From positions 9,517 through 73,516 of the forward strand of contig CAWGBJ010000014.1 in NCBI GenBank assembly GCA_963820795.1: a DNA stretch of 64,000 nucleotides, in the 5' to 3' direction. Positions 3,769-39,120 of the stretch are shown piece after piece (within the stretch, counting starts at the first letter, position 1; every line of letters starts with the position of its first letter). Below the pieces are notes generated by a model, which saw only the letters and a program-made list of their open reading frames with translations, was not told where the DNA came from and made no database searches. Both the position numbers and the translations under genes were made by a program. Source of the DNA: an uncultured Alphaproteobacteria bacterium. Lineage in GTDB: Bacteria > Pseudomonadota > Alphaproteobacteria > Rhizobiales > Beijerinckiaceae.

Positions 3769-3895
3769 ACTCCCCCCGCCCAGATGAAGATCGAGCGCCG
3801 CAATTGTCGCGAAACCCGAGGCGATCTCGGCATAGATGTTGGGGGTTGATCTCGTCGCGATTGGCCGCATCGCGAGAGGAGGACCTGCAACGACC

Positions 3896-5560
3896 ATGGT
3901 GAAAATGCGTCTCGGTTTCATGTGGATCGGAGCGATAGTCTCGAGTCGACTTCCGGCGATAACAGCTCAAATCCGAATCGGGATTGTTCTCTGCGCGACG
4001 ATCCCATTTTTCGGGCTGACCGACTTGGTGCGGGGTGCGTCGCCGCTTGCGATCTCTGCTTCAACGTCAGGTGCAATCACGGCTCCCCTGCGCGCTCTTT
4101 CAACCAATCCCAACTACTTCAGCGATGGCGCCGGCAAGGCAGTCTATTTGACGGGGTCTCACACTTGGAACGATTTTCAGGATTGGGGAACAAATGAGTC
4201 CCCCGTGCCGTTCGATTTTGCTGCGTATGTGAACCTGCTTGTCGCGCACAACCATAATTTCACGCTGTTGTGGCAGACAGAACTTCCGAGGTTCTGTGGA
4301 TTGCCAACCACCGCCAGTTCGCCGCCGGATTTTACTGTGACTCCGCTGCCCTGGCAGCGCTCAGGTCCGGGGAACGCATCGGACGGTAAGCCGAAATTCG
4401 ATCTCGCCAAATTCAACCCAACATACTTTGATCGGCTTCGTGCGAGGGTCCAGCGTTTGGATGCGGCTGGTATTTACGCCGGCGTCTACTTCTTCTCCGC
4501 CCAGTGGCTCCTTCGTTTTCGCTGTCCCGGTGACGGGTATCCCTTTACGGGGTCAAATAACATCAACGGAATTGACGATGGCGGCGGAACCGGTGCGGTG
4601 ACGATGACTGCTCCCAATGGGGTCACGGCCATTCAGGATGCCTTCGTCGAAAAAGTTATCGACACGCTTAATGATTTGCCGAATGTCCTCTGGATCGTGT
4701 CTAATGAAGCCCCTCCAAGTTCGACCTGGTGGAACAGCCATTTAGTCACCCTTGCCCGCTCGTATGAGGCTGGGAAGCCAGTTCAGCACCCCATCGGCTA
4801 TGCAGTGCTCGCCGACTTCAACAACTCCGTTATTCTCAATAGCGACGCCGACTGGATTGCTCCCGCCGCCGGAATCCCGCACTCTCATCTTCGAAACTTT
4901 CTTGGCCGACGAGTCACGGAGGGTGCGCTCCGATGGTTGATCGATAGGTGGTTCCCGACCACTAACTGCGGAAACGGTCACCCGTCTTGCAAAGTGACCG
5001 TCAACGATTCTGACCATAGTTACTTCGGGATGTGGAACGACTCCCCGCAGCTCAACAGAAATTTCTTCTGGATCAACTTCACCCAGGGAAATAACACTTT
5101 GTTCATGGATCCCTACGTTGTTTATTATCCGCGCGAAAGTCGTAATATTTGCCTATCGCCTGTTAATGGCGTCTGTTCGGAGCCTGATCCTCGTTGGGAT
5201 AACGTGCGTAATACCATGGGCTTTATCAGAGAATATGCCGAGCGGATGAATCTGGCCGCCATGACCGCACAGGGGAATCTTTCTTCAACCGGCCACGCTC
5301 TCGCTAACGCCAATGCGACGAATGCCGAATTCCTGATATATGCTCCTGCCGGCGGCAGCTTTACTGTGAATCTGTCCGGAAATATAGGTCAATTCGCCGT
5401 CGAATGGATGAACCCGGCGACGGGCGCCAGGGCCGTAGGCCCAAGTGTGAGTGGAGGTGCGCTGAGAACTTTCCAGCCACCCTTCAGTGGCGATGCAGTG
5501 CTGTATCTGGCGATGGTCGCCGTCACGACGCCGCCCCCTAAACCCGCGTTGGCAAGATGA
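3896..5560 (+). CDS. membrane-anchored or secreted glycoside-hydrolase-like protein (clan GH-A TIM barrel) with a C-terminal beta-sandwich resembling the 'collagenase collagen-binding' domain of DUF4038-type proteins
   Basis: Long ORF with an N-terminal hydrophobic anchor (IRIGIVLCATIPFFGL). NPNYFSDGAGKAVYLTGSHTWNDF and the WIVSNEAP block (NE-P acid/base-type motif) suggest a clan-A hydrolase. The C-terminus AEFLIYAPAGGSFTVNLSG...AVEWMNPATGA...GDAVLYL is typical of the beta-sandwich tail. GC is clearly lower than in the neighbours. Start is uncertain (ATG at 3836, 3896, 3905 or 3920). The functional call is from recollection of family motifs only. Confidence 0.6.
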   Translation: MVKMRLGFMWIGAIVSSRLPAITAQIRIGIVLCATIPFFGLTDLVRGASPLAISASTSGAITAPLRALSTNPNYFSDGAGKAVYLTGSHTWNDFQDWGTNESPVPFDFAAYVNLLVAHNHNFTLLWQTELPRFCGLPTTASSPPDFTVTPLPWQRSGPGNASDGKPKFDLAKFNPTYFDRLRARVQRLDAAGIYAGVYFFSAQWLLRFRCPGDGYPFTGSNNINGIDDGGGTGAVTMTAPNGVTAIQDAFVEKVIDTLNDLPNVLWIVSNEAPPSSTWWNSHLVTLARSYEAGKPVQHPIGYAVLADFNNSVILNSDADWIAPAAGIPHSHLRNFLGRRVTEGALRWLIDRWFPTTNCGNGHPSCKVTVNDSDHSYFGMWNDSPQLNRNFFWINFTQGNNTLFMDPYVVYYPRESRNICLSPVNGVCSEPDPRWDNVRNTMGFIREYAERMNLAAMTAQGNLSSTGHALANANATNAEFLIYAPAGGSFTVNLSGNIGQFAVEWMNPATGARAVGPSVSGGALRTFQPPFSGDAVLYLAMVAVTTPPPKPALAR

Positions 5561-11390: not shown

Positions 11391-12578
11391 TCAGATCCTG
11401 ATGAGATAGGGTTCGAGCGCCGCCAGGCTCTCGAGATTGTGCGCCGGCGCGAACAGATCGATGTAAGGCAGGGCGGCCTGCATCCCCCGCGCGGTCGGCG
11501 CGTAGTCGCGCCAGCCGATGAGCGGGTTGAGCCAGACGATGCGGCGACAGCGCCGCTTGAGCCGCCGCATCTCGTCGGCGAGCAGCGCGGGGTCGCCGGT
11601 GTCGTAGCCGTCGGAGACGATGATCAGCGCGGTGCGCGAAATGAGGACGCGCCCGGCGTGCCAGCGGTTGAAGTCGGCGAGGCTTTCGCCGATCCGCGTG
11701 CCGCCGCCGATGCCCTGCGCCATCAGCGCGAGCCGGTCGACCGCGCGCCCGACGTCGCGGTCCCTCAGCGCGCTCGAGACATGCACGAGGCTGGTATGGA
11801 AGACGAACGCCTCGGCTTCACGGAAGGCGTCGACCGCGGCGTGAATGAAGCGGACGAAGAAGGCGGTGTAGGGCTCCATCGAGCCCGAGGCGTCGAGCAG
11901 AATGACGAGCCGCAACGGACGTCGCTTGCGCCGCCGCCAGACGAGATCGATCGGCGTGCCGCCGTGGCCGACGCTGCGATGGATGGTGCGCCGCACGTCG
12001 AGCCTGCGGCCGCTGCGACGCGCCCGTTCGCGGCGCACCAGCCGCGCCCGCATGCGCTGCGCCAGCCGCTCGGCGAGCGCATGAACCTTCAGGACCTCGT
12101 CACGATCGGCGATGTGACGCAGGTCCCTGGACGAGAGCGCCCGGGCGCTCGAGGCCTCGTCGCGCGCATGAGAGCGCGAGTCCATGTCGCCGCCGCCCTC
12201 CCGCGAATCGCCGTCCTCCGTCGTCTTATCAATGTCGGGCGCAAGCCCGCTCCGATGGCCGGGCTGCGCCGTACGGCGCTTGTCGGCGGCGGGCGAAACC
12301 AGGAGGCGACGCACGCCGACGCCGAGCCAGAAGGCGTCGAACAGCGCATCGAAGCGCAGCCAGTCCGTTCGGGTGGCGCAAAAGAGCGCTCTCAGCGCCG
12401 GCCGCAGCGCCGACGGACGGCGCCCGAGCGGCGACGCCAGAACCGCCAGCGCGTCGCGGCTTTCGGCGAGCCCGGCGGCAAATCCGTTCTCGCGCAAGGC
12501 TGCGGCGAAAGCGGCGATGCGGGCCGCCGCCCGGCGGTCCAGTTCGCGTCCGTCTTCAACTCCGGCGAATGCGGCCAT
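11391..12578 (-). CDS. coxE: VWA-domain protein CoxE
   Basis: C-terminal von Willebrand A domain with MIDAS-type LVILLDASGSM. Positioned directly after the MoxR ATPase, as in cox clusters. Confidence 0.85.
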   Translation of the reverse strand: MAAFAGVEDGRELDRRAAARIAAFAAALRENGFAAGLAESRDALAVLASPLGRRPSALRPALRALFCATRTDWLRFDALFDAFWLGVGVRRLLVSPAADKRRTAQPGHRSGLAPDIDKTTEDGDSREGGGDMDSRSHARDEASSARALSSRDLRHIADRDEVLKVHALAERLAQRMRARLVRRERARRSGRRLDVRRTIHRSVGHGGTPIDLVWRRRKRRPLRLVILLDASGSMEPYTAFFVRFIHAAVDAFREAEAFVFHTSLVHVSSALRDRDVGRAVDRLALMAQGIGGGTRIGESLADFNRWHAGRVLISRTALIIVSDGYDTGDPALLADEMRRLKRRCRRIVWLNPLIGWRDYAPTARGMQAALPYIDLFAPAHNLESLAALEPYLIRI

Positions 12579-12585
12579 GGGCGCC

Positions 12586-13467
12586 TCAAGCGACCTTGCC
12601 GAGGAGGCGTTCTGTCGTCTCGCGCGTCATTCGCGCGCGGTCCTCGTGCGTTTTCAGGAGGCAGATCAGCGTCTCATGCACGATCTCCGGCGCGTCGCGC
12701 AGGTCCTCGACATGAAGACCGGCGAGGGTCGCCGCCCAGTCGAGCGTCTCGGCGACGCCCGGCGTCTTGCGCAGGTCCTCGCGGCGGATCGCCGCGACCA
12801 TGCGCGCGATCTGCGCGGCGAGCGCCGCAGCCACTCCCGGCGTGCGGGCGAGGATGATCGTCGCCTCGCGCTCGACGTCGGGAAAGTCGACATAGTGATA
12901 GAGGCAGCGGCGCCTCAGCGCGTCCGAGAGTTCGCGCGTGTCGTTCGAAGTCAATACGACGCGCGGGATGGCGATCGCGGCGATCGTGCCGAGTTCGGGA
13001 ATCGTGACCTGGAAGTCGGACAGGAGTTCGAGCAGGAACGCCTCGAATTCCTCGTCGGCCCGGTCGATCTCGTCGACCAGCAGCACCGGCGATTTTTGCC
13101 GGCGGATCGCCGCCAAAAGCGGGCGCTCGAGCAGATATTTCTCGGAGAAGATCTGCTCTTCGATCCGCTCCGCCGCCTCGCCCGCCGCCTCCCGCGCCTT
13201 GATCGCCAGGAGCTGCCGCTGATAGTTCCACTCGTAGAGCGTCGCGTTCTGGTCGAGGCCCTCGTAGCATTGCAGCCGGATCAGCTCGGCGCCATGCACC
13301 GCTGCGAGGGCCTTGGCGACCTCCGTCTTGCCGACGCCGGCCTTGCCCTCCAGCAACAGTGGCCGCTTGAGAAAGTCCATCAGCCAGAGCGCGGTCGCGA
13401 GATCGCGGTCGGCGATGTAGCCGACCGCGGCGAGCCGTCCTTCGATCTCTTCTCGCCCGATGGGCAT
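12586..13467 (-). CDS. coxD: MoxR-type AAA+ ATPase CoxD
   Basis: Walker A LLLEGKAGVGKT, Walker B VLLVDEIDRA, MoxR length and architecture. Lies immediately downstream of coxL. Confidence 0.9.
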   Translation of the reverse strand: MPIGREEIEGRLAAVGYIADRDLATALWLMDFLKRPLLLEGKAGVGKTEVAKALAAVHGAELIRLQCYEGLDQNATLYEWNYQRQLLAIKAREAAGEAAERIEEQIFSEKYLLERPLLAAIRRQKSPVLLVDEIDRADEEFEAFLLELLSDFQVTIPELGTIAAIAIPRVVLTSNDTRELSDALRRRCLYHYVDFPDVEREATIILARTPGVAAALAAQIARMVAAIRREDLRKTPGVAETLDWAATLAGLHVEDLRDAPEIVHETLICLLKTHEDRARMTRETTERLLGKVA

Positions 13468-18842: not shown

Positions 18843-21155
18843 TCACGGCCCTTTCTTTTCGATCAGGGCGATGTCTGTCGAGCCATAGCGGTCGAGCATT
18901 TGCTGTTGTGCGGCGACGCTGACGGCCGCTATCCACGGCAGACAGGTCTTGTTGCCCTCTCCCTTGCCGCGGCCGCCGAACGCGGTGCCGGAGAACATTG
19001 GATCATCGGCAAACCACCAGGAGATCAACAGTCCTTCTTCCTGAAGCCCAGGCATGGCATAGCCCCACGTTTTTGTCGGCAGGGCGACGGTTTCGTTGCA
19101 GCCGGCCTGGAGCAATTCGGCAGCGCGGAAGAACAGGGCCTCGCCACTCGCCAATCCGAGTTCAACGAGGTCCGGAACGACCAGGAGGCCCATCGGATGG
19201 ATATAGCCCGCGCCGGGAGAATCGCAGGCCATCCATCCGGTCGATCGGAATCCGAAACGCGCGAGCGTAGATCGTGGCGGCAACGGCACATCCCAGAGGC
19301 AAACCCAAGTGACGACGAGACGCCCGGCGCGCTGCGCGCCATCTAGATAGTCGGCGCTTTTTGTCGCCCGATACAAACTTAGCAGCGCTTGCATCGCGAA
19401 GATGATGCTCTCTCCGTCGACGAGTTGCGGCTTAGCGTAAATCGAGTCGTGGATGCCGCCGTTGAACTTCATGCGCTCGACGAAGTGGAGCCGCACAAAC
19501 TCTCCCGCTCGGCGAGCAGCCTCCAGGAAGCGCTCCTCGCCGGTCGCTTCGTAGAAATCGACGAGCAGAGGAACCGGAACGGCGGTTGAGGACTTCTGTT
19601 GAACTTCGGTCTGGCCGAACCAGGCTGCCGGCTCGGTGATTGGCGCGCCATCAGGCGCATAGGCGCGAAACCAGGAACCGTCGGAGTTCTGCGCCGAAAC
19701 CAGGAACTCGGCGAAGGCGCGGCAAAGCGACAGCCAGTCCGCACGATCGGCGGCGCGCCCAGCCTCGTATCGATAGGCTGAAAGCATGGCGGCGTATTCC
19801 TCAACGACACAACGCAGGTAGATGCCGTCGCGGCCGGCTAGCGCCTCGATCACTTCACGCAAATGCCGATAAAGGGGCCCCATCAGCCCTTCGAGGTCGC
19901 CGCCCGGTTCGGCATAAGCGAGCGGCAGGATCAGGCCCGTCCACCAATTGCCGAATTTGCGTGTGTCGGCGTTGTAATAACCGGGGATCAGCCCAAGCTT
20001 GGACCGCGAGGCCACAGTGGCAAAGAAGGTCAGGACCGACATCGCCTTGCGTCGACGCTCGGGGTCGCCGTCGCGGTCGGCGGCGCGCAGCAGATTGAGC
20101 GCATGGAGGTTGTTCTGGCCGGTGAACCCGAACTGAATGACATTCGAGAGTTGCTTTCCATCCTGGGGATGACAATTCGTGACGAAGCCGGCGGCAAAGG
20201 GTGGATCCTTCTCTTCGATGAAGAAGCGAAGCATCGCATCGATCCTATGGCGTTCGATTGCTTCCAGACTCGCCCCCAAAGCGACCGGACTCGGCTGCAA
20301 CTCCTCGAATTTGCGACGCCACATCGACCAAAGAGCCGCGTGGACGTCCGCGGCCGCTTCGACGCGGATGTTCCATGATCCGGTAAGGACATCTCCCTCG
20401 GCTGCCGGCCAGAACGCTGCAAAGGGGGAGCGCTCTCTTACCATAAGCGCGTTGCTGCGCGTCCTCTCGGCGAACGGATAGGCGGCGATCAGGGCGATCT
20501 CGCCGTTCTTCGGCTCGAAACCGAGGCTCCCGATGTCGGTCCGCTGCAGGAAAGCTTTTTGCCCCGGGCTACGTTCTGGAGTCGGGTCGAACTCGGGCAG
20601 GTCGGCGCGCGACAGGCTGAAGCCAAGTCCAGCGTCCGGGTTGTAAGCGAGGATCGACAGGAGATTGAGGCGATCCTCGCGGTAGTGGAGGCTTCGGGCG
20701 TCGAGATAGTCTTCGACGCCGTCCTCATTCAGATCGTTTAGATCATAGAGCGCGGGCGGGGCGAAATAGCGGAAGTCGCCATAGGCGCGCTTGGGCAGCG
20801 TCGGAACCAGCTCAAGGATCAGGCGCACGCCGCACGCCTGTCTTACGGAGAGGATTTCCAGACGACGGTCGACGCGCCAGCCGTCGTCGGCGAACGGTCG
20901 CCAACTGTCCGTAAGGCGAGCGCTCAACCAAGGTAGATCGATCTCGGCCTCGCCAATGAGCGCGCCGCCGAGTTCGCGGGTTTGAGAATACGGCGCCGAA
21001 TGCCGCTGGCCATCGACCGTCAGATTGTTGGCCTCGGCGAGCTCGACTTCGACCGCAGCCGAAAGCGCGAGGACCTCGCTCTCGCCGCGCTTCCAGGTCA
21101 GTCCGACGCCGCCCTCTCGTTCGGCGCGGCGGAGCTCGACAAAGCCGGCCGGCAT
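18843..21155 (-). CDS. large cytoplasmic protein of unknown function. N-terminal roughly 300-aa beta-rich region plus a C-terminal alpha/alpha-toroid-like region (putative glycoside hydrolase, phosphorylase or lyase)
   Basis: 770-aa ORF with SD GAGGAGGA 5 nt upstream of the ATG. Last gene of the CUT1 sugar-uptake operon. No signal peptide. One QW-like repeat (RAFAEFLVSAQNSDGSW) and helix-rich periodicity in residues ~300-770. I cannot place it in a family. Confidence 0.7.
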   Translation of the reverse strand: MPAGFVELRRAEREGGVGLTWKRGESEVLALSAAVEVELAEANNLTVDGQRHSAPYSQTRELGGALIGEAEIDLPWLSARLTDSWRPFADDGWRVDRRLEILSVRQACGVRLILELVPTLPKRAYGDFRYFAPPALYDLNDLNEDGVEDYLDARSLHYREDRLNLLSILAYNPDAGLGFSLSRADLPEFDPTPERSPGQKAFLQRTDIGSLGFEPKNGEIALIAAYPFAERTRSNALMVRERSPFAAFWPAAEGDVLTGSWNIRVEAAADVHAALWSMWRRKFEELQPSPVALGASLEAIERHRIDAMLRFFIEEKDPPFAAGFVTNCHPQDGKQLSNVIQFGFTGQNNLHALNLLRAADRDGDPERRRKAMSVLTFFATVASRSKLGLIPGYYNADTRKFGNWWTGLILPLAYAEPGGDLEGLMGPLYRHLREVIEALAGRDGIYLRCVVEEYAAMLSAYRYEAGRAADRADWLSLCRAFAEFLVSAQNSDGSWFRAYAPDGAPITEPAAWFGQTEVQQKSSTAVPVPLLVDFYEATGEERFLEAARRAGEFVRLHFVERMKFNGGIHDSIYAKPQLVDGESIIFAMQALLSLYRATKSADYLDGAQRAGRLVVTWVCLWDVPLPPRSTLARFGFRSTGWMACDSPGAGYIHPMGLLVVPDLVELGLASGEALFFRAAELLQAGCNETVALPTKTWGYAMPGLQEEGLLISWWFADDPMFSGTAFGGRGKGEGNKTCLPWIAAVSVAAQQQMLDRYGSTDIALIEKKGP

Positions 21156-26557: not shown

Positions 26558-27316
26558 GTGGACCGGACGTCGTCGGTCGTCGGCCGGTCGTTGGGGAAAG
26601 CCTTGCACCGCTCCTGGCTCTTTGCGCTCGGCGGATTCATTCTCGGGTCGACGGCTGTCGTCGGGCCGGGAAGCGTCTTGGCGCAGAATGCCGCGCCGCC
26701 ATCGGGCGCGATCCTCGATTTGAACGGCCAGATCATCGACCCTCTGACGCCTATGAACTACATGGTGTCGTTCACGGCCGACGCGGCGCTCATGAACATC
26801 GCCTTCGCGTTCCGCGACGATCCATCGTATATCGAGTTCACCAACGCGTCCCTGGTCGATTTGACGACGTCGTCTACGGTAAACCTCTTGATGAACGGGG
26901 CTTTCGATCAGGGCTCCTCGAACTCCGGCATGGGCGTCCCGCTTCCGAAGGATTGGGTCTACACCGTCCTCTCCGGGTCGTCGGACGCGGGTTTCATCCA
27001 GAACTGCGGCGCGGCGCATTGTTGGGTCGACGGCTCGATCCAGGGCTACGACGAGCTCAGTCAAGCGGTCCAGACGACCGTCGGCAACGTCTATGAAGTG
27101 TCGTTCACCGCCGAAGTGGTCGGCGGCGTCGCCGCGTGGTCGCGGGTCAGCACCAATGGCGACACGTCGGACGCCGGCGGAAACGGCGCAGACATTCTGG
27201 TTTACGCAAGGCTGCGGCCGATCCCGGAACCGTCGACCTGGGCCATGATGGCGCTCGGATTCGCCGGGCTCGGCTTCCTCGGCTGCCGTCGCCGCGGCGC
27301 CGTCGCGCCGCTCTAA
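26558..27316 (+). CDS. PEP-CTERM sorting-domain secreted protein with a lectin/CBM-like jelly-roll body
   Basis: GTG start and signal peptide ([22 protein letters not shown]). The C-terminus [26 protein letters not shown] is the PEP motif + TM helix + Arg cluster of exosortase substrates. The body contains NGAFDQGS...PKDW, reminiscent of CBM4/DUF642-like modules. Confidence 0.75.
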
Positions 27317-33176: not shown

Positions 33177-34583
33177 ATGACGACCTTGTCGGACGCGGGG
33201 ATGCGAGACTTCGCCGCCAAATTCAAGGGTCGGGCGCTGAGGCCCGCGGACCCCGAGTACGATTCCTCCCGCGCGCTCTGGAACGGCGCCATTGACCGCA
33301 AGCCGGCGATCGTCGCGCGCTGCTCGACCGCCGAGGAGGTCGCGGAGGCGGTCCGCTTCGCGCGGGCTTGCGGCCTCGAGATCGCGGTCAGGGGCGGCGG
33401 GCACAACTACGCCGGCAACGCGGTCTGCGAGGGCGGCATGATGATCCATCTCGGCGACATGAACCGCGTTGCTGTGGACCCGGAAGCGCGCCGCGTTACA
33501 TGCGGCGGCGGGGCGACCTGGGGCGACGTGGACGCGGCGACTCAACAGCATGGCCTTGCGACCCCCGGCGGCGTCATCAGCCACACCGGCGTGGCGGGCC
33601 TTGCGCTCGGCGGCGGCGTCGGCTGGCTTACGAAGGCGGCGGGGCTCAGCTGCGACAACCTGCTTGGGGCCGAAGTCGTCACGGCCGACGGGCGGATCGT
33701 CCGCGCGTCGGACAAGGAGAATCCCGACCTCTTCTGGGCGCTGACCGGCGGGGGAGGAAATTTCGGCATCGTCACCTCCTTCGACTTCGCTCTGCATCCT
33801 GTCGGGCCGCTCGTCCAACTGGGCCTCTTCTTCGCCCCGCTCGAGAACGGAACTGAAGCCCTCAGATTCTGCCGCGACTACGTCGATTCGCTGCCCGACA
33901 ACGCAACGTCGCTTCTTGCGATTGGCTTGAGCGCGCCGCCCGAGCCCTTCGTGCCTGAAGAGCATCGCTTCAAGAATGGCCACGCGCTCATCGTCGTGGG
34001 ATTCGGCTCGCCCGAGGACCACGCCAGGGCGATCGCGCCCGTACGGGAGGGGATGAAGCCGCTCTTCGAACTCGTGACGCCCATCCCCTTCGTAGCGCTC
34101 CAGCAGATGCTCAACGACAGCAGCCACTGGGGCACGCTCGCCTATGAAAAGGCGCTCTATCTCGATTCCCTTTCCGACGCGGCAATCGCGGTGATCGGCG
34201 AGCACGCGCCGAAGAAAAAGTCGCCGCTGTCGTTCGTGCCCACCTTCCGCCTCGACGGGAAGTACCTCGCAAGGCGTGACGCCGACAGCGCCTTCGGGGG
34301 GAGCCGCTCGGGTGGCTACGTCCTCAACATTGCGGCGCACGCTCCGCCCGGGTCGTCCCGCGACTTGTACGAAGCAGACCGGGCCTGGGCGCGGAGCTTC
34401 TGGGACGCGATGCGGCCGCACGCAACCGGCTCGGGCAGCTATGTGAATTTCATGGCTGACATTGAGGAGGATCGGGTGAAGGCCGCCTATGGCCCCGAGA
34501 AATACGCCCGCCTCGCCCGCGTCAAGCGCGCGTGGGACCCGGACAACGTCTTCCACCTGAACGTCAACATCAAACCGGCGTGA
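33177..34583 (+). CDS. FAD-linked oxidase (FAD_binding_4 / berberine-bridge-enzyme-like family)
   Basis: ATG at 33177 with GGAG 8 nt upstream. PAIVARCSTAEEVAEAVRFARACGLEIAVRGGGHNYAGNAV (PCMH-type FAD domain) and C-terminal YGPEKYARLARVKRAWDPDNVFHLNVNI (BBE tail). The in-frame 738-nt upstream extension in the track does not look coding. Confidence 0.85.
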   Translation: MTTLSDAGMRDFAAKFKGRALRPADPEYDSSRALWNGAIDRKPAIVARCSTAEEVAEAVRFARACGLEIAVRGGGHNYAGNAVCEGGMMIHLGDMNRVAVDPEARRVTCGGGATWGDVDAATQQHGLATPGGVISHTGVAGLALGGGVGWLTKAAGLSCDNLLGAEVVTADGRIVRASDKENPDLFWALTGGGGNFGIVTSFDFALHPVGPLVQLGLFFAPLENGTEALRFCRDYVDSLPDNATSLLAIGLSAPPEPFVPEEHRFKNGHALIVVGFGSPEDHARAIAPVREGMKPLFELVTPIPFVALQQMLNDSSHWGTLAYEKALYLDSLSDAAIAVIGEHAPKKKSPLSFVPTFRLDGKYLARRDADSAFGGSRSGGYVLNIAAHAPPGSSRDLYEADRAWARSFWDAMRPHATGSGSYVNFMADIEEDRVKAAYGPEKYARLARVKRAWDPDNVFHLNVNIKPA

Positions 34584-35154
34584 GGAGAGGGCGGCGGCGC
34601 TTCCGCGACGCCGCTCGGCTACGAGCCGCCGCCAAAGTCACGCAGAGTCGCGCGCGTTCGATGTTGCTCCTTTGCTGGCTTCGGCAGGCTCTCGGGTGAT
34701 TGCCCCTTACTCGGGCTTTCGAGATCGCCGCGGGGCGTCGACGCCTGCGCGCGCGACGTTCTGCAAGATGGACCAACTTGAGGAACTCCAGCGGATTTCT
34801 CCGCAAAAAACCGCTCGCCAAAGGTGTATGCCCGACCGAGCAACACCGCACTTGCGCGGACTCCTACCGATCGATCGGCACGACGAACGAGACCGTTGCA
34901 TCGGATTGCGGTCAATGGCCGAACGCGTTTGGTTGGGCCAGCATCGACTGTTCCTGAAGAAGCTTCGCTCGAACCGAGGTGCAACATTCGTCCTGAACAA
35001 CTGAACGACGCGAATCGGATGTTAAGCGGTCGGTGCAAATCGCATTACGGGGACGAGATATGAATTCCCCATATCAAGGGGTCGACATAGGCGGGCGGCG
35101 ACATTTGCAATCATGTCCCCCGAAATCTCTGTAATCTACAATACAAAATAGGCC

Positions 35155-36771
35155 TTATTGTGGTTCTTTACCCTGCACCGCATAGTCAAGGCACCCGAGG
35201 GCGAGGGCTTCTTTAGTATGTTTCTCCGCGGCCTTGATCTTGCCCGGATCCACGCCGGGCAGCGCATCGCCGCCATGATCGCTGTTAAAGGCATCAATAA
35301 GTACCATAATGGGGTCGTTTTTATCATCCTTGTTCGCGGCCTGATAAACCGGAACAAACTGTTGGACATCCTCCCCGGCAAGAGTGCCGCTGTTTCTACT
35401 CAGTTCTCCAAGCGCCGCCACAATCTGTTCATGGCTCATGGGCGGCTTGGGCGCCCGCAGAATCCCGGGCGGCAGATAGTCCTTGATATCATTCCATGTA
35501 AACGTCGAGTCGGGAATGCCGTGGCTGCACGGCGCCACTTTGACGGCCTCGCCGTACACGACGAGCGGCGCCCCGGTGGCACGGTCCGTTTCCGCGGCCG
35601 TCCTGCCGTACACGGCGAGCGGCGGCACGGCATTGGCGCGGCCCGTTTCCGCCGGAGGCGCGACCCCACCCGCCGCCGAAACTTCCGGCGGAACGCGGCC
35701 GCGGGAAAGGACAAGCGACCTTCCCTGCAGCCGCCATACGACGCGCTCAACGCGCGCGGCGTCGTGAGCCCGGATCTTGTAGTCGACGACGAGGGCCCTC
35801 TTGTCGGCGGAATCGAAGAACCACTTCGCTGTGACCTCGATCGACTTGCTCGGGTCGGTCATCGCGCCCGAATTGTCGTCGGCGATAGGGATCGGAGTGG
35901 TATTGAGACTGACGAGTTGGCCTGCGTGGAAGGCATAGAAGTCGACGCCCGTAAAAGCGTAGCCCTGAAACATCCCGCCGCTCTCGATCGCCATGCCGTC
36001 GTCGCCACCGATCTCGATGGCGGAAATGTCTCCAACGGCGCCAAACGTCCCAAGCGTGGCGAATTGGCGATAACGGCGGACAGTCTGGAAGCCGCCATTG
36101 ACCCGCCGGACCACATAGGCCGACAGCGGCGCCCCGCAGCCGTGGCAGCCTCCGCCGGGCTCGCCGGCCTGGAAAACGAGGACGTCGGCGCTGGCGTAAC
36201 GCAGAACTTGAAGCGGATAGAGGCAGTCTTCGCCCGTCGCTTTGAAAGTCGCCTTGCCGAATACCGCCGCGACTTCCGCCGCCAGCCGCGGGTCGGCGTC
36301 GAGTGGCTTTTTCGCGGCAGCGCAGAAGGCAGCGGACTCGCCGGCTTCGTCGCCGTGCTTCGCCTGATTCGCATAGACAGGGTTGTCGGCGAGGGCAGGT
36401 CCGGACGTACCCGAAAAAACGATACCAGAATCAGTTATTTCAACGTTGGGAGTGGACGGATTTGCAAACACGACTCCAATACAATTATCATAATCATCAG
36501 TAATAACCCATGGATGGGTGACTAAACTATTTCGTGATTCCACTGAGCCAGGCGTCACGTAGAAATGCTGCGCGCGCTTTCCCGCGTAGTCTACCCAGTA
36601 TATATTGGCCGCATGGCTTGAATTATTAACAAATGTTATAATCGCAGGTCTGCCTGTCGCCGTTGACCTTAATGTGGCCTGGTCTAAACAACTTATGCCG
36701 TTGCCGATCGCCGTCACCGGCATGACCAGAGAAAAAACCAAGGCAATGATGAGACTTCGTACACCACGCAT
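35155..36771 (-). CDS. secreted protein of unknown function with an N-terminal pVHL-beta-domain-like module
   Basis: ATG at 36771 gives signal peptide MRGVRSLIIALVFSLVMPVTAIG. Residues ~35-95 align without gaps to the human pVHL beta domain (see findings). The rest has no family I recognise. There is an internal short repeat PLAVYGRTAAE / PLVVYGEAVKV. GC content is mosaic: low at both gene ends, high in the middle. Confidence 0.6.
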   Translation of the reverse strand: MRGVRSLIIALVFSLVMPVTAIGNGISCLDQATLRSTATGRPAIITFVNNSSHAANIYWVDYAGKRAQHFYVTPGSVESRNSLVTHPWVITDDYDNCIGVVFANPSTPNVEITDSGIVFSGTSGPALADNPVYANQAKHGDEAGESAAFCAAAKKPLDADPRLAAEVAAVFGKATFKATGEDCLYPLQVLRYASADVLVFQAGEPGGGCHGCGAPLSAYVVRRVNGGFQTVRRYRQFATLGTFGAVGDISAIEIGGDDGMAIESGGMFQGYAFTGVDFYAFHAGQLVSLNTTPIPIADDNSGAMTDPSKSIEVTAKWFFDSADKRALVVDYKIRAHDAARVERVVWRLQGRSLVLSRGRVPPEVSAAGGVAPPAETGRANAVPPLAVYGRTAAETDRATGAPLVVYGEAVKVAPCSHGIPDSTFTWNDIKDYLPPGILRAPKPPMSHEQIVAALGELSRNSGTLAGEDVQQFVPVYQAANKDDKNDPIMVLIDAFNSDHGGDALPGVDPGKIKAAEKHTKEALALGCLDYAVQGKEPQ

Positions 36772-37425
36772 GAGCGCGCCCCGATGCTCAGCGGGTTGCA
36801 AAGAAGCTGGCCGCCTTCTCGGGATTGTGTCCGCGCCGATCATACAGCCTGGTTCTGCTCGGATCGCGATGGGTGAAGAGGGTCAGAGAGGCTTTCATCT
36901 GATGCTCCGTGTGATGCCACCGTCGCAGACATTGCTCCAATGGCATCGATCAATCAACGCCCACAGAAAGCCGAAGGGATACGAGCGCTGGACTTCTCAA
37001 ATTCTTGCAGACCGTGCGAAAACTCGATGTGTACGGTCGCGCAGAGAACCGATTTTCGCGATCTTTTCTGCTCTGCTCTCTCCCAGAGGCCGCGAGATTC
37101 GGGCTGCGATTGCGGCTTCTTGCGCACTCCGGCCGTCCCGAGTGGCGGCTCCGGATGATCGAAATCCACACTTCGCGATGTTCCGACCGCGGATCGATCA
37201 ATGCCGGCTCAGGGGGGACTATACGCCTACATGGGCTGCCCGGAGCGGCGCGCTTCCCGCGCCGTTCCTGCCGTTCGGCCTACGGCCGCTATCGCCATAC
37301 CCGAAATTCAATCTGAGACACGACCGATCCTGAAGGTCCTTTGGAACCCCCTTGTAAACTGTGGTAGAAAGATCGGCCGATCGCGTCGGCGCGGTCGATG
37401 ACCAAGGATCCCGGGACGAGACGCC

Positions 37426-39120
37426 ATGGCCCTTCTGACGCAGTCCTATGTGCATGGCGCGAGTTCGACGCCGCTCCTCGGCGAGACGATTGGCGCGCTC
37501 CTTCGCCGGACGGCCGGTGAAGGTCCGGGCCGGCCGGCGCTCGTGACGCGTCATCAGGGGGTGCGCCGGACTTATGCCGATCTCCTGCGCCGGTCGGAGG
37601 ATCTGGCGGTCGGCCTCATGGCGCTCGGCCTTAAGAAGGGCGACCGCATCGGCATTTGGTCGGCCAACACGAGCGAATGGGTGCTGGCGCAATTTGGCAC
37701 GGCGCTCGCAGGCCTCATCCTGGTCAACATCAATCCCGCCTATCGCTCGCACGAATTCGACTATGCGATCAAGAAATCCGGCTGCCGGGCGCTGATCCTC
37801 TCGCCGGGACATCGCAACAACGACTATTTCGCCTCGCTCCGGGCGAGCGCGCCCGAGATCGACGGGTCGGAACCGGGGAAGCTGCGGTCGAACGGTCTGC
37901 CGAAGCTCGAGACCGTCATTCGTCTCGGGGCCGAGAAGACGCCCGGCATGCTGAATTTCGACGACGTCGCCCGTCCCGCCGGCGACGATGAGCGGCAGGC
38001 GCTGGCCGACTTCGGCGCTTCGCTGCAATTCGACGACCCGATCAACATCCAGTTCACCTCCGGCACTACGGGGGCGCCGAAGGGCGCGACGCTGACGCAC
38101 CACAACATCGTCAACAACGGCTATTTCATCGGCGAGGCGATGCGGCTCACGCCGGACGACCGGCTGTGCATCCCGGTGCCCTATTATCACTGCTTCGGCA
38201 TGGTGCTGGGCAACCTCGCCTGCGTCACCCACGGCGCCTGCATGGTGAGCCCGGCCGAGGCGTTCGATCCGGCGGCGACGCTGGAAGCGGTTGAGGCGGA
38301 AGCCTGCACCGGGCTGCACGGCGTGCCGACCATGTTCATCGCCATGCTCGATCATCCCGAATTCGACCGATTCGACCTCAAGACGCTGCGCACCGGCATC
38401 ATGGCCGGCTCGCCTTGCCCGGTCGAGGTCATGCGCCGGGTCGTCGACCGCATGCATATGAGCGAAGTGACCATCGCCTACGGCATGACGGAGACGAGCC
38501 CGGTCAGTTTCCAGAGCGCCTGCGACGATCCCCTCGACCGCCGCGTATCGACCGTCGGGCGGATCCAGCCGCATATCGAGGTCAAGGTGGTCGACCGTGA
38601 CGGGCGGATCGTTCCGCCGGGCGTCCCGGGCGAATTATTGACCCGTGGCTATAGCGTCATGCGCGGCTACTGGGACGACCCCGCCGCAACCGCCACAGCC
38701 ATCGACGAGGCCCGGTTCATGCATACCGGCGATCTCGCGACCATCGACGCCGAAGGCTATTGCAACATCGTCGGGCGGCTGAAGGACATGATCATCCGCG
38801 GCGGCGAGAACATCTATCCCCGGGAGATCGAGGAGTTTCTCTACACCCACCCGGCCGTCGCCGACGTCCAGGCCTTCGGCCTCCCCGATCATCGCTACGG
38901 CGAGGAGCTCTGCGTGTGGATCCGCCGGCGCGAGGGCATGAGCCTCAATGAAAACGAGGTGATCGCCTTCTGCCGCGCCTCGATCGCGCATTACAAGGCG
39001 CCGCGCTACGTGCGCTTCGTCGACTCGTTTCCGATGACGGTCACCGGAAAAGCGCAAAAGTTCTTGATGCGTCAGGCGATGATGCAAGAATTGTCGCTAG
39101 TCGAGGAAAAAACAGCCTGA
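37426..39120 (+). CDS. AMP-dependent acyl-CoA synthetase/ligase (ACSF2 / medium-chain-like)
   Basis: AMP-binding motif [63 protein letters not shown], and C-terminal lysine context TVTGKAQKF. Confidence 0.9.

Follow-up and report, generated by a model that had tools for sequence, protein, structure and literature searches.

The hydroxyproline (Hyp) site of the human tumor suppressor pVHL is formed by W88, Y98, H110, S111, H115 and W117, with S111 and H115 binding the Hyp hydroxyl, the Y98 hydroxyl binding the Hyp carbonyl, and F91 and Y112 lining a pocket adjacent to this site (PMC9528729). In prokaryotes, a VHL beta domain was reported in an accessory protein of type X retrons (PMC7736814), and the secreted protein EMK97_00595 from Litorilituus sediminis was described, purely in silico, as a VHL beta-domain protein (PMC9002001). 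In the searchable literature we found no experimentally characterised bacterial VHL domain and no statement of a conserved bacterial VHL pocket. Here we describe a gene located on the minus strand, at 35155-36771, of a 64,000-nucleotide stretch of DNA from an uncultured soil alphaproteobacterium (contig CAWGBJ010000014.1, positions 9,517 to 73,516; this whole stretch is called the window below). The host is related to Roseiarcus (Hyphomicrobiales), the nearest genome records being metagenome-assembled genomes (MAGs) of uncultured Alphaproteobacteria and Roseiarcus sp. The gene codes for a protein with an N-terminal VHL beta-domain-like module (N module), a central module M and a C-terminal module C. 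The best explanation of the whole, to which we give a probability of about 0.55, is a Sec-exported, disulfide-containing three-module protein in which a divergent VHL beta domain would serve as a pocket-binding module.

The N module has the same predicted beta-sandwich as the beta domain of human pVHL (residues 63-154; PDB 1LM8, 1VCB, 4AJY), and the two share a gapless register over 59-66 residues with N78, W88, S111, H115 and W117 in common (pVHL numbering). In contrast to pVHL, the window protein lacks the alpha domain and BC box needed to recruit Elongin C/Cul2; it is very probably exported, contains a cysteine pair absent from pVHL and is fused to two unrelated modules, and in its subfamily Y98 is replaced by variable H/T/S/Q/R and Y112 by Leu. 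Other bacterial proteins of the VHL family PF01847 belong to the same domain family and are often exported and often multidomain or tandem, whereas the window subfamily is only marginally covered by the Pfam model (19.6-25.5 bits), with an altered groove and with partners M and C that are not described with VHL domains elsewhere. The VHL domain of the retron type X accessory protein is cytoplasmic, unlike that of the exported window protein. The gene is a new borderline member of an already catalogued bacterial kind. The preliminary description of this DNA had presented it as unusual, a view that is not supported, as bacterial relatives are numerous, with strong PF01847 matches, and some are already named 'von Hippel-Lindau disease tumor suppressor' by JGI and UniRef. 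Five of these relatives (P0056, P0072, P0074, P0081 and P0082; 1,700-2,000 aa) contain between 7 and 11 VHL beta domains in tandem, with beta/gamma-crystallin-like parts behind them; one protein of 2,000 aa has ten to eleven copies. In other proteins VHL domains are fused to caspase (P0136), patatin (P0157) or TIG (P0065) domains.

The N module and the pVHL beta domain

The 59-residue peptide that the preliminary description had set against pVHL residues 63-121 corresponds exactly to residues 34-92 of the product, and the human sequence used there was correct, residues 54-213 being 100% identical to PDB 1LM8 chain V and mapping to 54-213 of the 213-aa chain 8QVU_F. The ungapped alignment gave, as claimed, 15 identities over 59 columns, with the equivalents of N78, W88, S111, H115 and W117 identical and a His in the Y98 column, so that four of the five Hyp-pocket residues (W88, Y98, S111, H115 and W117) are kept with Y98 as the sole mismatch. 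Pairwise BLASTP of the domain with pVHL was also gapless (31.2 bits, E=1e-6). The Pfam VHL model (PF01847), with a curated gathering cut-off of 21 bits, matched the window protein with 19.6 bits (E=9.4e-4), residues 35-93 aligning to model positions 2-60 of 82. Close paralogues, whose N modules are 72-92% identical, scored 20.5, 21.1, 21.4, 23.9 and 25.5 bits, and distant relatives retrieved with the window domain as query scored 22.7-346 bits. On these scores the window protein would be a borderline miss by the strict Pfam cut-off and a member by transitive evidence. Among the tests of homology used here, the Pfam match is the weakest.

Searched against all PDB sequences, a profile of 32 bacterial domain copies retrieved 24 distinct pVHL sequences (E=8e-11 to 7e-10), and no match other than pVHL was better than E=0.43. 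The hhalign comparison of the subfamily alignment with pVHL gave a probability of 97.8% (E=7.9e-13) with the register unchanged. The AlphaFold2 (AF2) model of residues 24-135, built from an 18-sequence alignment, showed eight strands with a mean predicted local distance difference test score (pLDDT) of 82 and a folded core at 88-94. With this model, all of the 50 Foldseek matches listed from the PDB were pVHL (probability 1.00), the best of them with a root mean square deviation of 1.7-2.0 A over 87-93 columns and a query-normalised template modelling score (TM) of up to 0.64. The family signature residues N78, W88, G93, S/T111, H115 and W117 are all present, as N49, W59, G64, S82, H86 and W88. 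Because the profile, profile-profile and predicted-fold evidence agree, we consider the N module (residues 26-121) to be a homologue of the pVHL beta domain, and it is a genuine but divergent member of PF01847. The corresponding claim of the preliminary description is thus borne out, both by the profile matches (Pfam and hhalign) and by the pVHL-type sandwich predicted with AF2 and Foldseek. With the three-module protein as query, phmmer returned 1,635 proteins at E<=0.001 among 1.84 billion representative proteins, about 60 of the best 150 of them aligning to residues 20-120 and matching Pfam VHL with 44-346 bits, and a profile search with the short domain in a word-indexed protein database returned 12 proteins. 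Comparison of the full-length sequence with the PDB yielded chance matches only (fibronectin and parkin, E>2), and an NCBIfam search gave no match.

The product is very probably exported, judging from its N-terminal signal-peptide features and from the cysteines of the N module, in line with the secreted or periplasmic location proposed earlier. Cys28 and Cys97 occur both in 47, neither in 61 and only one in 2 of 110 distant bacterial copies of the domain; their joint presence or absence in 108 of the 110 points to a disulfide, as expected in an exported protein. The VHL alpha-domain family gave no Pfam match in the window protein even at E<=10, and the hhalign match was limited to positions 8-73 of the 160-residue pVHL 54-213 construct (pVHL 61-126). 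After residue 121 a disordered linker is followed by module M, with no alpha domain or BC box. A role as ubiquitin-ligase adaptor is excluded, since the protein lacks the alpha domain and BC box and has a signal peptide and a coupled cysteine pair; the assignment as substrate receptor of a pVHL-type cullin-RING E3 ligase was likewise rejected for an exported protein of a bacterial host.

The pocket and its proposed role

Conservation was measured on an alignment of 154 sequences (152 bacterial domain copies, the window domain and pVHL), using a distant set of 110 non-redundant bacterial copies, each less than 45% identical to the window domain and ranked over 87 columns, and a close set of 38 close relatives of the window protein. 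The pocket equivalents in the window protein are W59 (W88), H69 (Y98), S82 (S111), H86 (H115) and W88 (W117). In the distant set, W88 is kept in 109 copies (conservation rank 1), N78 in 108 (rank 2), G93 in 105 (rank 3), W117 in 96 with Phe in 12 others (rank 5), H115 in 98 (rank 9) and Y98 in 87 (rank 15); the S111 position is Thr in 94 and Ser in 10, together 104 of 110 (rank 8), and the Y112 position is Tyr or Phe in 102 (rank 16). By this alignment-based measure the residues of the pocket rank with the best conserved ones of the domain in the 110 diverse bacterial copies, a check that the preliminary description had called for and that came out in its favour.

The reading given at the outset assigns to the N module a binding function through the family pocket, which would have a Thr/Ser and a His at its bottom and two Trp flanking it, at positions corresponding to those that hold the hydroxyl and the ring of Hyp in pVHL. 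Such a pocket could grip a small hydroxyl-bearing group on an extracytoplasmic polymer, protein or glycan, and this grip would position module M, all-beta and propeller-like, and module C. We propose this specific function, binding of a hydroxyl-bearing group with positioning of M and C, tentatively. By analogy, the bacterial VHL domains may be likened to beta-sandwich carbohydrate-binding or lectin-like modules, which are also small, exported, present in tandem arrays, fused to catalytic or adhesive domains and provided with a conserved site of Trp/Tyr and polar residues. The N module showed no sequence or fold match to carbohydrate-binding or lectin-like families, Foldseek giving pVHL only among the matches listed.

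Several observations weigh against this reading. The Pfam score of the window protein lies 1.4 bits below the VHL cut-off (19.6 against 21). In the 38 close relatives the Y98 position is occupied by H/T/S/Q/R, and 37 of the 38 have Leu at the Y112 position; compared with pVHL, the groove would thereby lose a wall and the ligand backbone a hydrogen bond. Residue 69, at the Y98 position (codon 36565-36567, minus strand), varies more than any other site of the folded domain in the close set, with an entropy of 1.92 bits, which could reflect relaxed or diversifying selection, and the residue that follows it is an invariant Phe. The conserved residues belong in part to the pVHL hydrophobic core, and proteins with 8-11 tandem copies keep them in every repeat, so that they may be determinants of the fold rather than a binding site. 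In a codon comparison with a 91% identical homologue (L002), the 133 codons of the N module yielded 16 non-synonymous and 10 synonymous differences and the 233 codons of module M 14 and 22, so that the constraint on the N module looks weaker, on small numbers. Finally, no prolyl hydroxylase or functionally linked gene was found among the 31 Pfam-scanned genes of the approximately 46 in the window, which include the ten nearest ones. The window protein does not have the full pVHL-type set of the five pocket residues plus the groove aromatic Y112, and the earlier description of the pocket as intact-looking is not sustained. A Tyr two positions past the Y98 column, to which that description had pointed, is variable among close homologues (Y/D/H/N/A) and for this reason unlikely to replace Y98. 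With Y98 variable and Y112 replaced by Leu, the groove of the subfamily is less pVHL-like than that of most bacterial relatives. As two groove aromatics are replaced, the ligand or its context would probably be unlike that of pVHL and of most bacterial relatives.

Whether the pocket residues serve binding at all has to be weighed against a possible, although rather unlikely, alternative in which the beta-sandwich of the VHL-like module would be no more than a scaffold or spacer, with pocket residues that hold the fold together and any function residing in M and C. The same residues are indeed found in each of 8-11 tandem copies of the proteins of 1,700-2,000 aa, in a stalk-domain-like arrangement, the structural positions N78, G93 and F76 are equally strongly conserved, the pVHL site is described as made of buried, mostly aromatic side chains (PMC9528729), and the subfamily tolerates the loss of Y98 and Y112. 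A buried Thr/Ser-His pair kept at 95% and 89% across copies of less than 45% identity would, however, be unusual for pure packing; the domain is joined to effector-type domains (caspase, patatin) and stands as a constant part before variable partners, as in a recognition module, and the single position at which the subfamily varies most is on the pocket rim, which fits specificity tuning as well as relaxed constraint. The stricter proposal of the preliminary description is a true Hyp reader, in which Hyp peptides from plant hydroxyproline-rich glycoproteins, collagen-like proteins or a hydroxylated bacterial protein would be bound as pVHL binds HIF. S111, H115 and both Trp are kept in the window protein and across the family, and the source organisms are soil and peat alphaproteobacteria, an environment where plant Hyp-rich polymers are available. 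We nevertheless rate this proposal low, because Y98 and Y112 are changed, with the loss at a variable position of the hydroxyl that binds the Hyp carbonyl in pVHL, and because no linked hydroxylase was found; Hyp-catabolic genes were also absent from the 31 scanned genes, and in the searchable literature Hyp binding by a bacterial VHL-like domain was found nowhere.

Two further explanations concern the way in which the gene is built. Among proteins whose C-terminal parts are unrelated, the identity of the N module and of about 70-200 nt of DNA ahead of it amounts to 72-92%. At least three other C-terminal arrangements occur behind this unit, which behaves as a cassette recently joined to different C-terminal modules. 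The G+C content at third codon positions (GC3) is 0.27-0.57 across the N module (36409-36771) and 0.67-0.93 in module M; of 45 other genes selected in the window, all except one have values of 0.73-0.89. This composition break inside the gene suggests a different history for the N cassette. In one MAG (L013, 9929-13870) two VHL-module paralogues of 408 and 602 aa stand in tandem with the same conserved 5' block, and the 146-aa open reading frame (ORF) between them has no family match. Such features would suit a polymorphic secreted effector, with the constant VHL module targeting or binding a receptor and swappable C-terminal modules carrying the activity: a constant N module and 5' region precede at least three or four unrelated C-terminal arrangements, tandem paralogues enclose a small ORF, the M-C junction bears a duplication scar, the composition is atypical and an IS110 transposase lies 2.7 kb from the gene in contig L001. 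We regard this as quite improbable, since no module matches a toxin, immunity or defence family (Pfam, PADLOC), module M is mainly a stand-alone secreted protein with ordinary neighbours in many genomes, and the downstream region 34584-35154 of the window contains no credible ORF and no convincing immunity gene. The low GC3 of the N module also bears on the remaining explanation, that the true gene is the 438-aa public call, preceded by a leader, untranslated or in decay, to which the VHL resemblance would be confined. The NCBI and ENA calls start at an internal GTG (P0001, 438 aa; L001 8001-9317) and lack the signal peptide and the VHL-like module, and the N region is AT-rich for the genome with relatively many non-synonymous differences to the L002 homologue. 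We attribute the start of the public calls to this AT-rich coding region, and the leader explanation seems to us very improbable: the reading frame stays open between 36843 and 35155 not only in the window but also in L002 and in L001 (99.65% identical), where the part ahead of the internal GTG differs by just two amino acids; the 438-aa product has no signal peptide, whereas all stand-alone M homologues have one; the N region has the complete set of residues that define the family, in a domain whose conservation extends down to 25% identity, and its predicted fold is confident; and the full-length protein is called in other assemblies.

Returning to the pocket-binding reading, we consider doubtful its broadest extension, in which the Hyp-reading pocket of pVHL would be the ancestral site of bacterial, mostly exported VHL domains binding Hyp-bearing or similarly hydroxylated extracellular ligands, with the rim at the Y98 position re-tuned to new ligands by subfamilies like that of the window protein. 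If the same pocket does bind ligands in bacteria, this would show the origin of the Hyp-reading module of animal oxygen sensing, and the large natural set of pocket variants could be of interest for the design of VHL ligands and degraders. The pVHL pocket as the conserved core of a large bacterial family is of wider interest than the single gene, which itself adds a divergent subfamily at the edge of Pfam and two further uncharacterised secreted modules that recombine with the N module. It is also a case in which automatic gene calling drops the VHL domain of an AT-rich coding region.

Gene structure and modules M and C

The coordinates of the features are given in Table 1. The maximal ORF runs from an ATG at 36843 to the stop codon at 35157-35155 of the minus strand, and the ATG at 36771 gives the protein of 538 aa, which starts MRGVRSLIIALVFSLVMPVTAIG (also given as MRGVRSLIIALVFSLVMPVTAIGNGISC). 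The 5' block upstream of this ATG is common to paralogues with different C-terminal parts; we kept 36771 as the start because this DNA is conserved in the paralogues yet not consistently in frame. Within the block, one paralogue exhibits a 1-nt deletion compensated by a 1-nt insertion, and another an in-frame deletion of 33 nt. The signal peptide exhibits two Arg in the n-region, a hydrophobic core with an 11-residue Kyte-Doolittle mean of up to 3.1, and a V-T-A motif with small residues at -3/-1, and cleavage probably occurs after V-T-A, a site deduced from sequence. The same N+M+C order was called at full length in other assemblies (P0023, 549 aa; P0025, 539 aa), and two-module N+M versions end just short of module C (P0002, P0027 and P0031).

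Table 1 Features of the VHL-like gene in the window, with the evidence on which each is placed.
Feature	Coordinates	Strand	Evidence or remark
Complete coding sequence, 538 aa + stop; three modules behind a signal peptide	35155..36771	-	ORF list, translation
Conserved 5' block before the start codon	36772..36900	-	Alignment of four upstream regions (A6)
Probable Sec signal peptide, residues 1-21, MRGVRSLIIALVFSLVMPVTA	36709..36771	-	Sequence features
VHL beta-domain-like module (N module), residues 26-121, with C28/C97	36409..36696	-	Pfam, profile, hhalign, AF2, Foldseek
59-residue stretch, residues 34-92, equivalent to pVHL 63-121, ungapped	36496..36672	-	Pairwise and profile alignment
Internal GTG, Val101, start in public gene calls	36469..36471	-	P0001 starts MFANPST, i.e. 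residue 101 onward
Linker, residues 122-142, TSGPALADNPVYANQAKHGDEAG	36346..36408	-	pLDDT <50; point of paralogue divergence
Module M, residues 143-372, all-beta, cysteine pair C150/C183	35656..36345	-	phmmer, AF2
Imperfect tandem duplication of 54-57 nt at the M-C junction, encoding PPLAVYGRTAAETDRATGAPLVVYGE	35551..35652	-	Direct-repeat families D1-D3
Module C, residues 395-538	35158..35589	-	Homologues P0020, P0021, P0005, P0058, P0064, P0067

The shared N module ends at the linker, beyond which the paralogues run into unrelated C-terminal parts. The stretch of about 430 aa that had been called unassignable in the preliminary description resolves into the two recurring modules M and C. Module M has homologues in a widespread alphaproteobacterial family of secreted stand-alone proteins about 247 aa long, which it matches at E=1e-79 to 1e-87 along 92-99% of its length and to which it is 59-88% identical. 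The stand-alone proteins (for example P0219 from Roseiarcus sp. and P0302) share the conserved cysteine pair and motifs of module M and have no other part apart from a signal peptide, whereas in the window protein M is inserted between the VHL-like module and C. A word-indexed search with module M gave 199 proteins at E<=1e-5, all labelled hypothetical, the best 120 of which are 59-94% identical; more distant homologues show 29-46% identity, and of 47 diverse family members, 46 have both C150 and C183. We found no Pfam match and no PDB sequence match for module M. Its AF2 model (pLDDT 93.7) is all-beta except for two N-terminal helices and a short C-terminal helix, and Foldseek gave beta-propeller-like matches; as these were weak (TM<=0.36), the module is left without fold assignment.

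Module C, for which there was no Pfam or PDB match either, is also found behind an FG-GAP/LppP-like module (P0020, P0021 and P0058) and behind a different VHL paralogue (P0005). The duplication at the M-C junction (PPLAVYG...PLVVYGE) is probably a recombination scar, and P0020 and P0021 have the PLAVYGE motif in a single copy.

Genomic neighbourhood

The gene is solitary, with flanking intergenic stretches of about 570 bp and of 580-650 bp, according to the start codon chosen. Its neighbours are ordinary (a BBE-type FAD oxidase, an acyl-CoA synthetase, FtsH and an alpha/beta hydrolase, then a PMT_2 glycosyltransferase, an ABC/FtsX exporter and a GDSL lipase), and no consistent functional link was seen among the neighbours of the gene and of the stand-alone M homologues. 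In two loci (L014 6001-10865 and L017 6001-10525) the stand-alone M homologue has as its neighbour on the other strand a hydantoinase/oxoprolinase gene (1,200 aa), which is probably synteny rather than a functional link. An Rfam scan of 34400-37600, including the 5' block, gave no match, and neither did PADLOC for defence families nor megablast against plasmids; the promoter and terminator scan found sites no more numerous than in shuffled sequence, and the search for flanking inverted repeats or insertion sequence ends around the gene gave short weak matches only. In the 98% identical contig L001 the IS110-family transposase (12039-13253), absent from the window, is located between the BBE oxidase and FtsX genes.

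At 3836-5560 of the window (plus strand), in a low-GC stretch (GC 0.57) 30 kb from the VHL-like gene, an ORF of 574 aa matched PF12904, a putative collagen-binding domain of a collagenase, with 25.7 bits, and DUF6298 weakly. It is probably a secreted glycoside-hydrolase-like protein. A candidate second VHL-like copy inside this ORF (4964-5122, tblastn E=0.83) lacks the family motif and was rejected as a chance match. Another ORF of 770 aa (18843-21155, minus strand), with no Pfam match, adjoins an ABC sugar-type transporter operon coding for a solute-binding protein and two permeases, and a 252-aa protein encoded at 26558-27316 (plus strand) contains a PEP-CTERM sorting motif.

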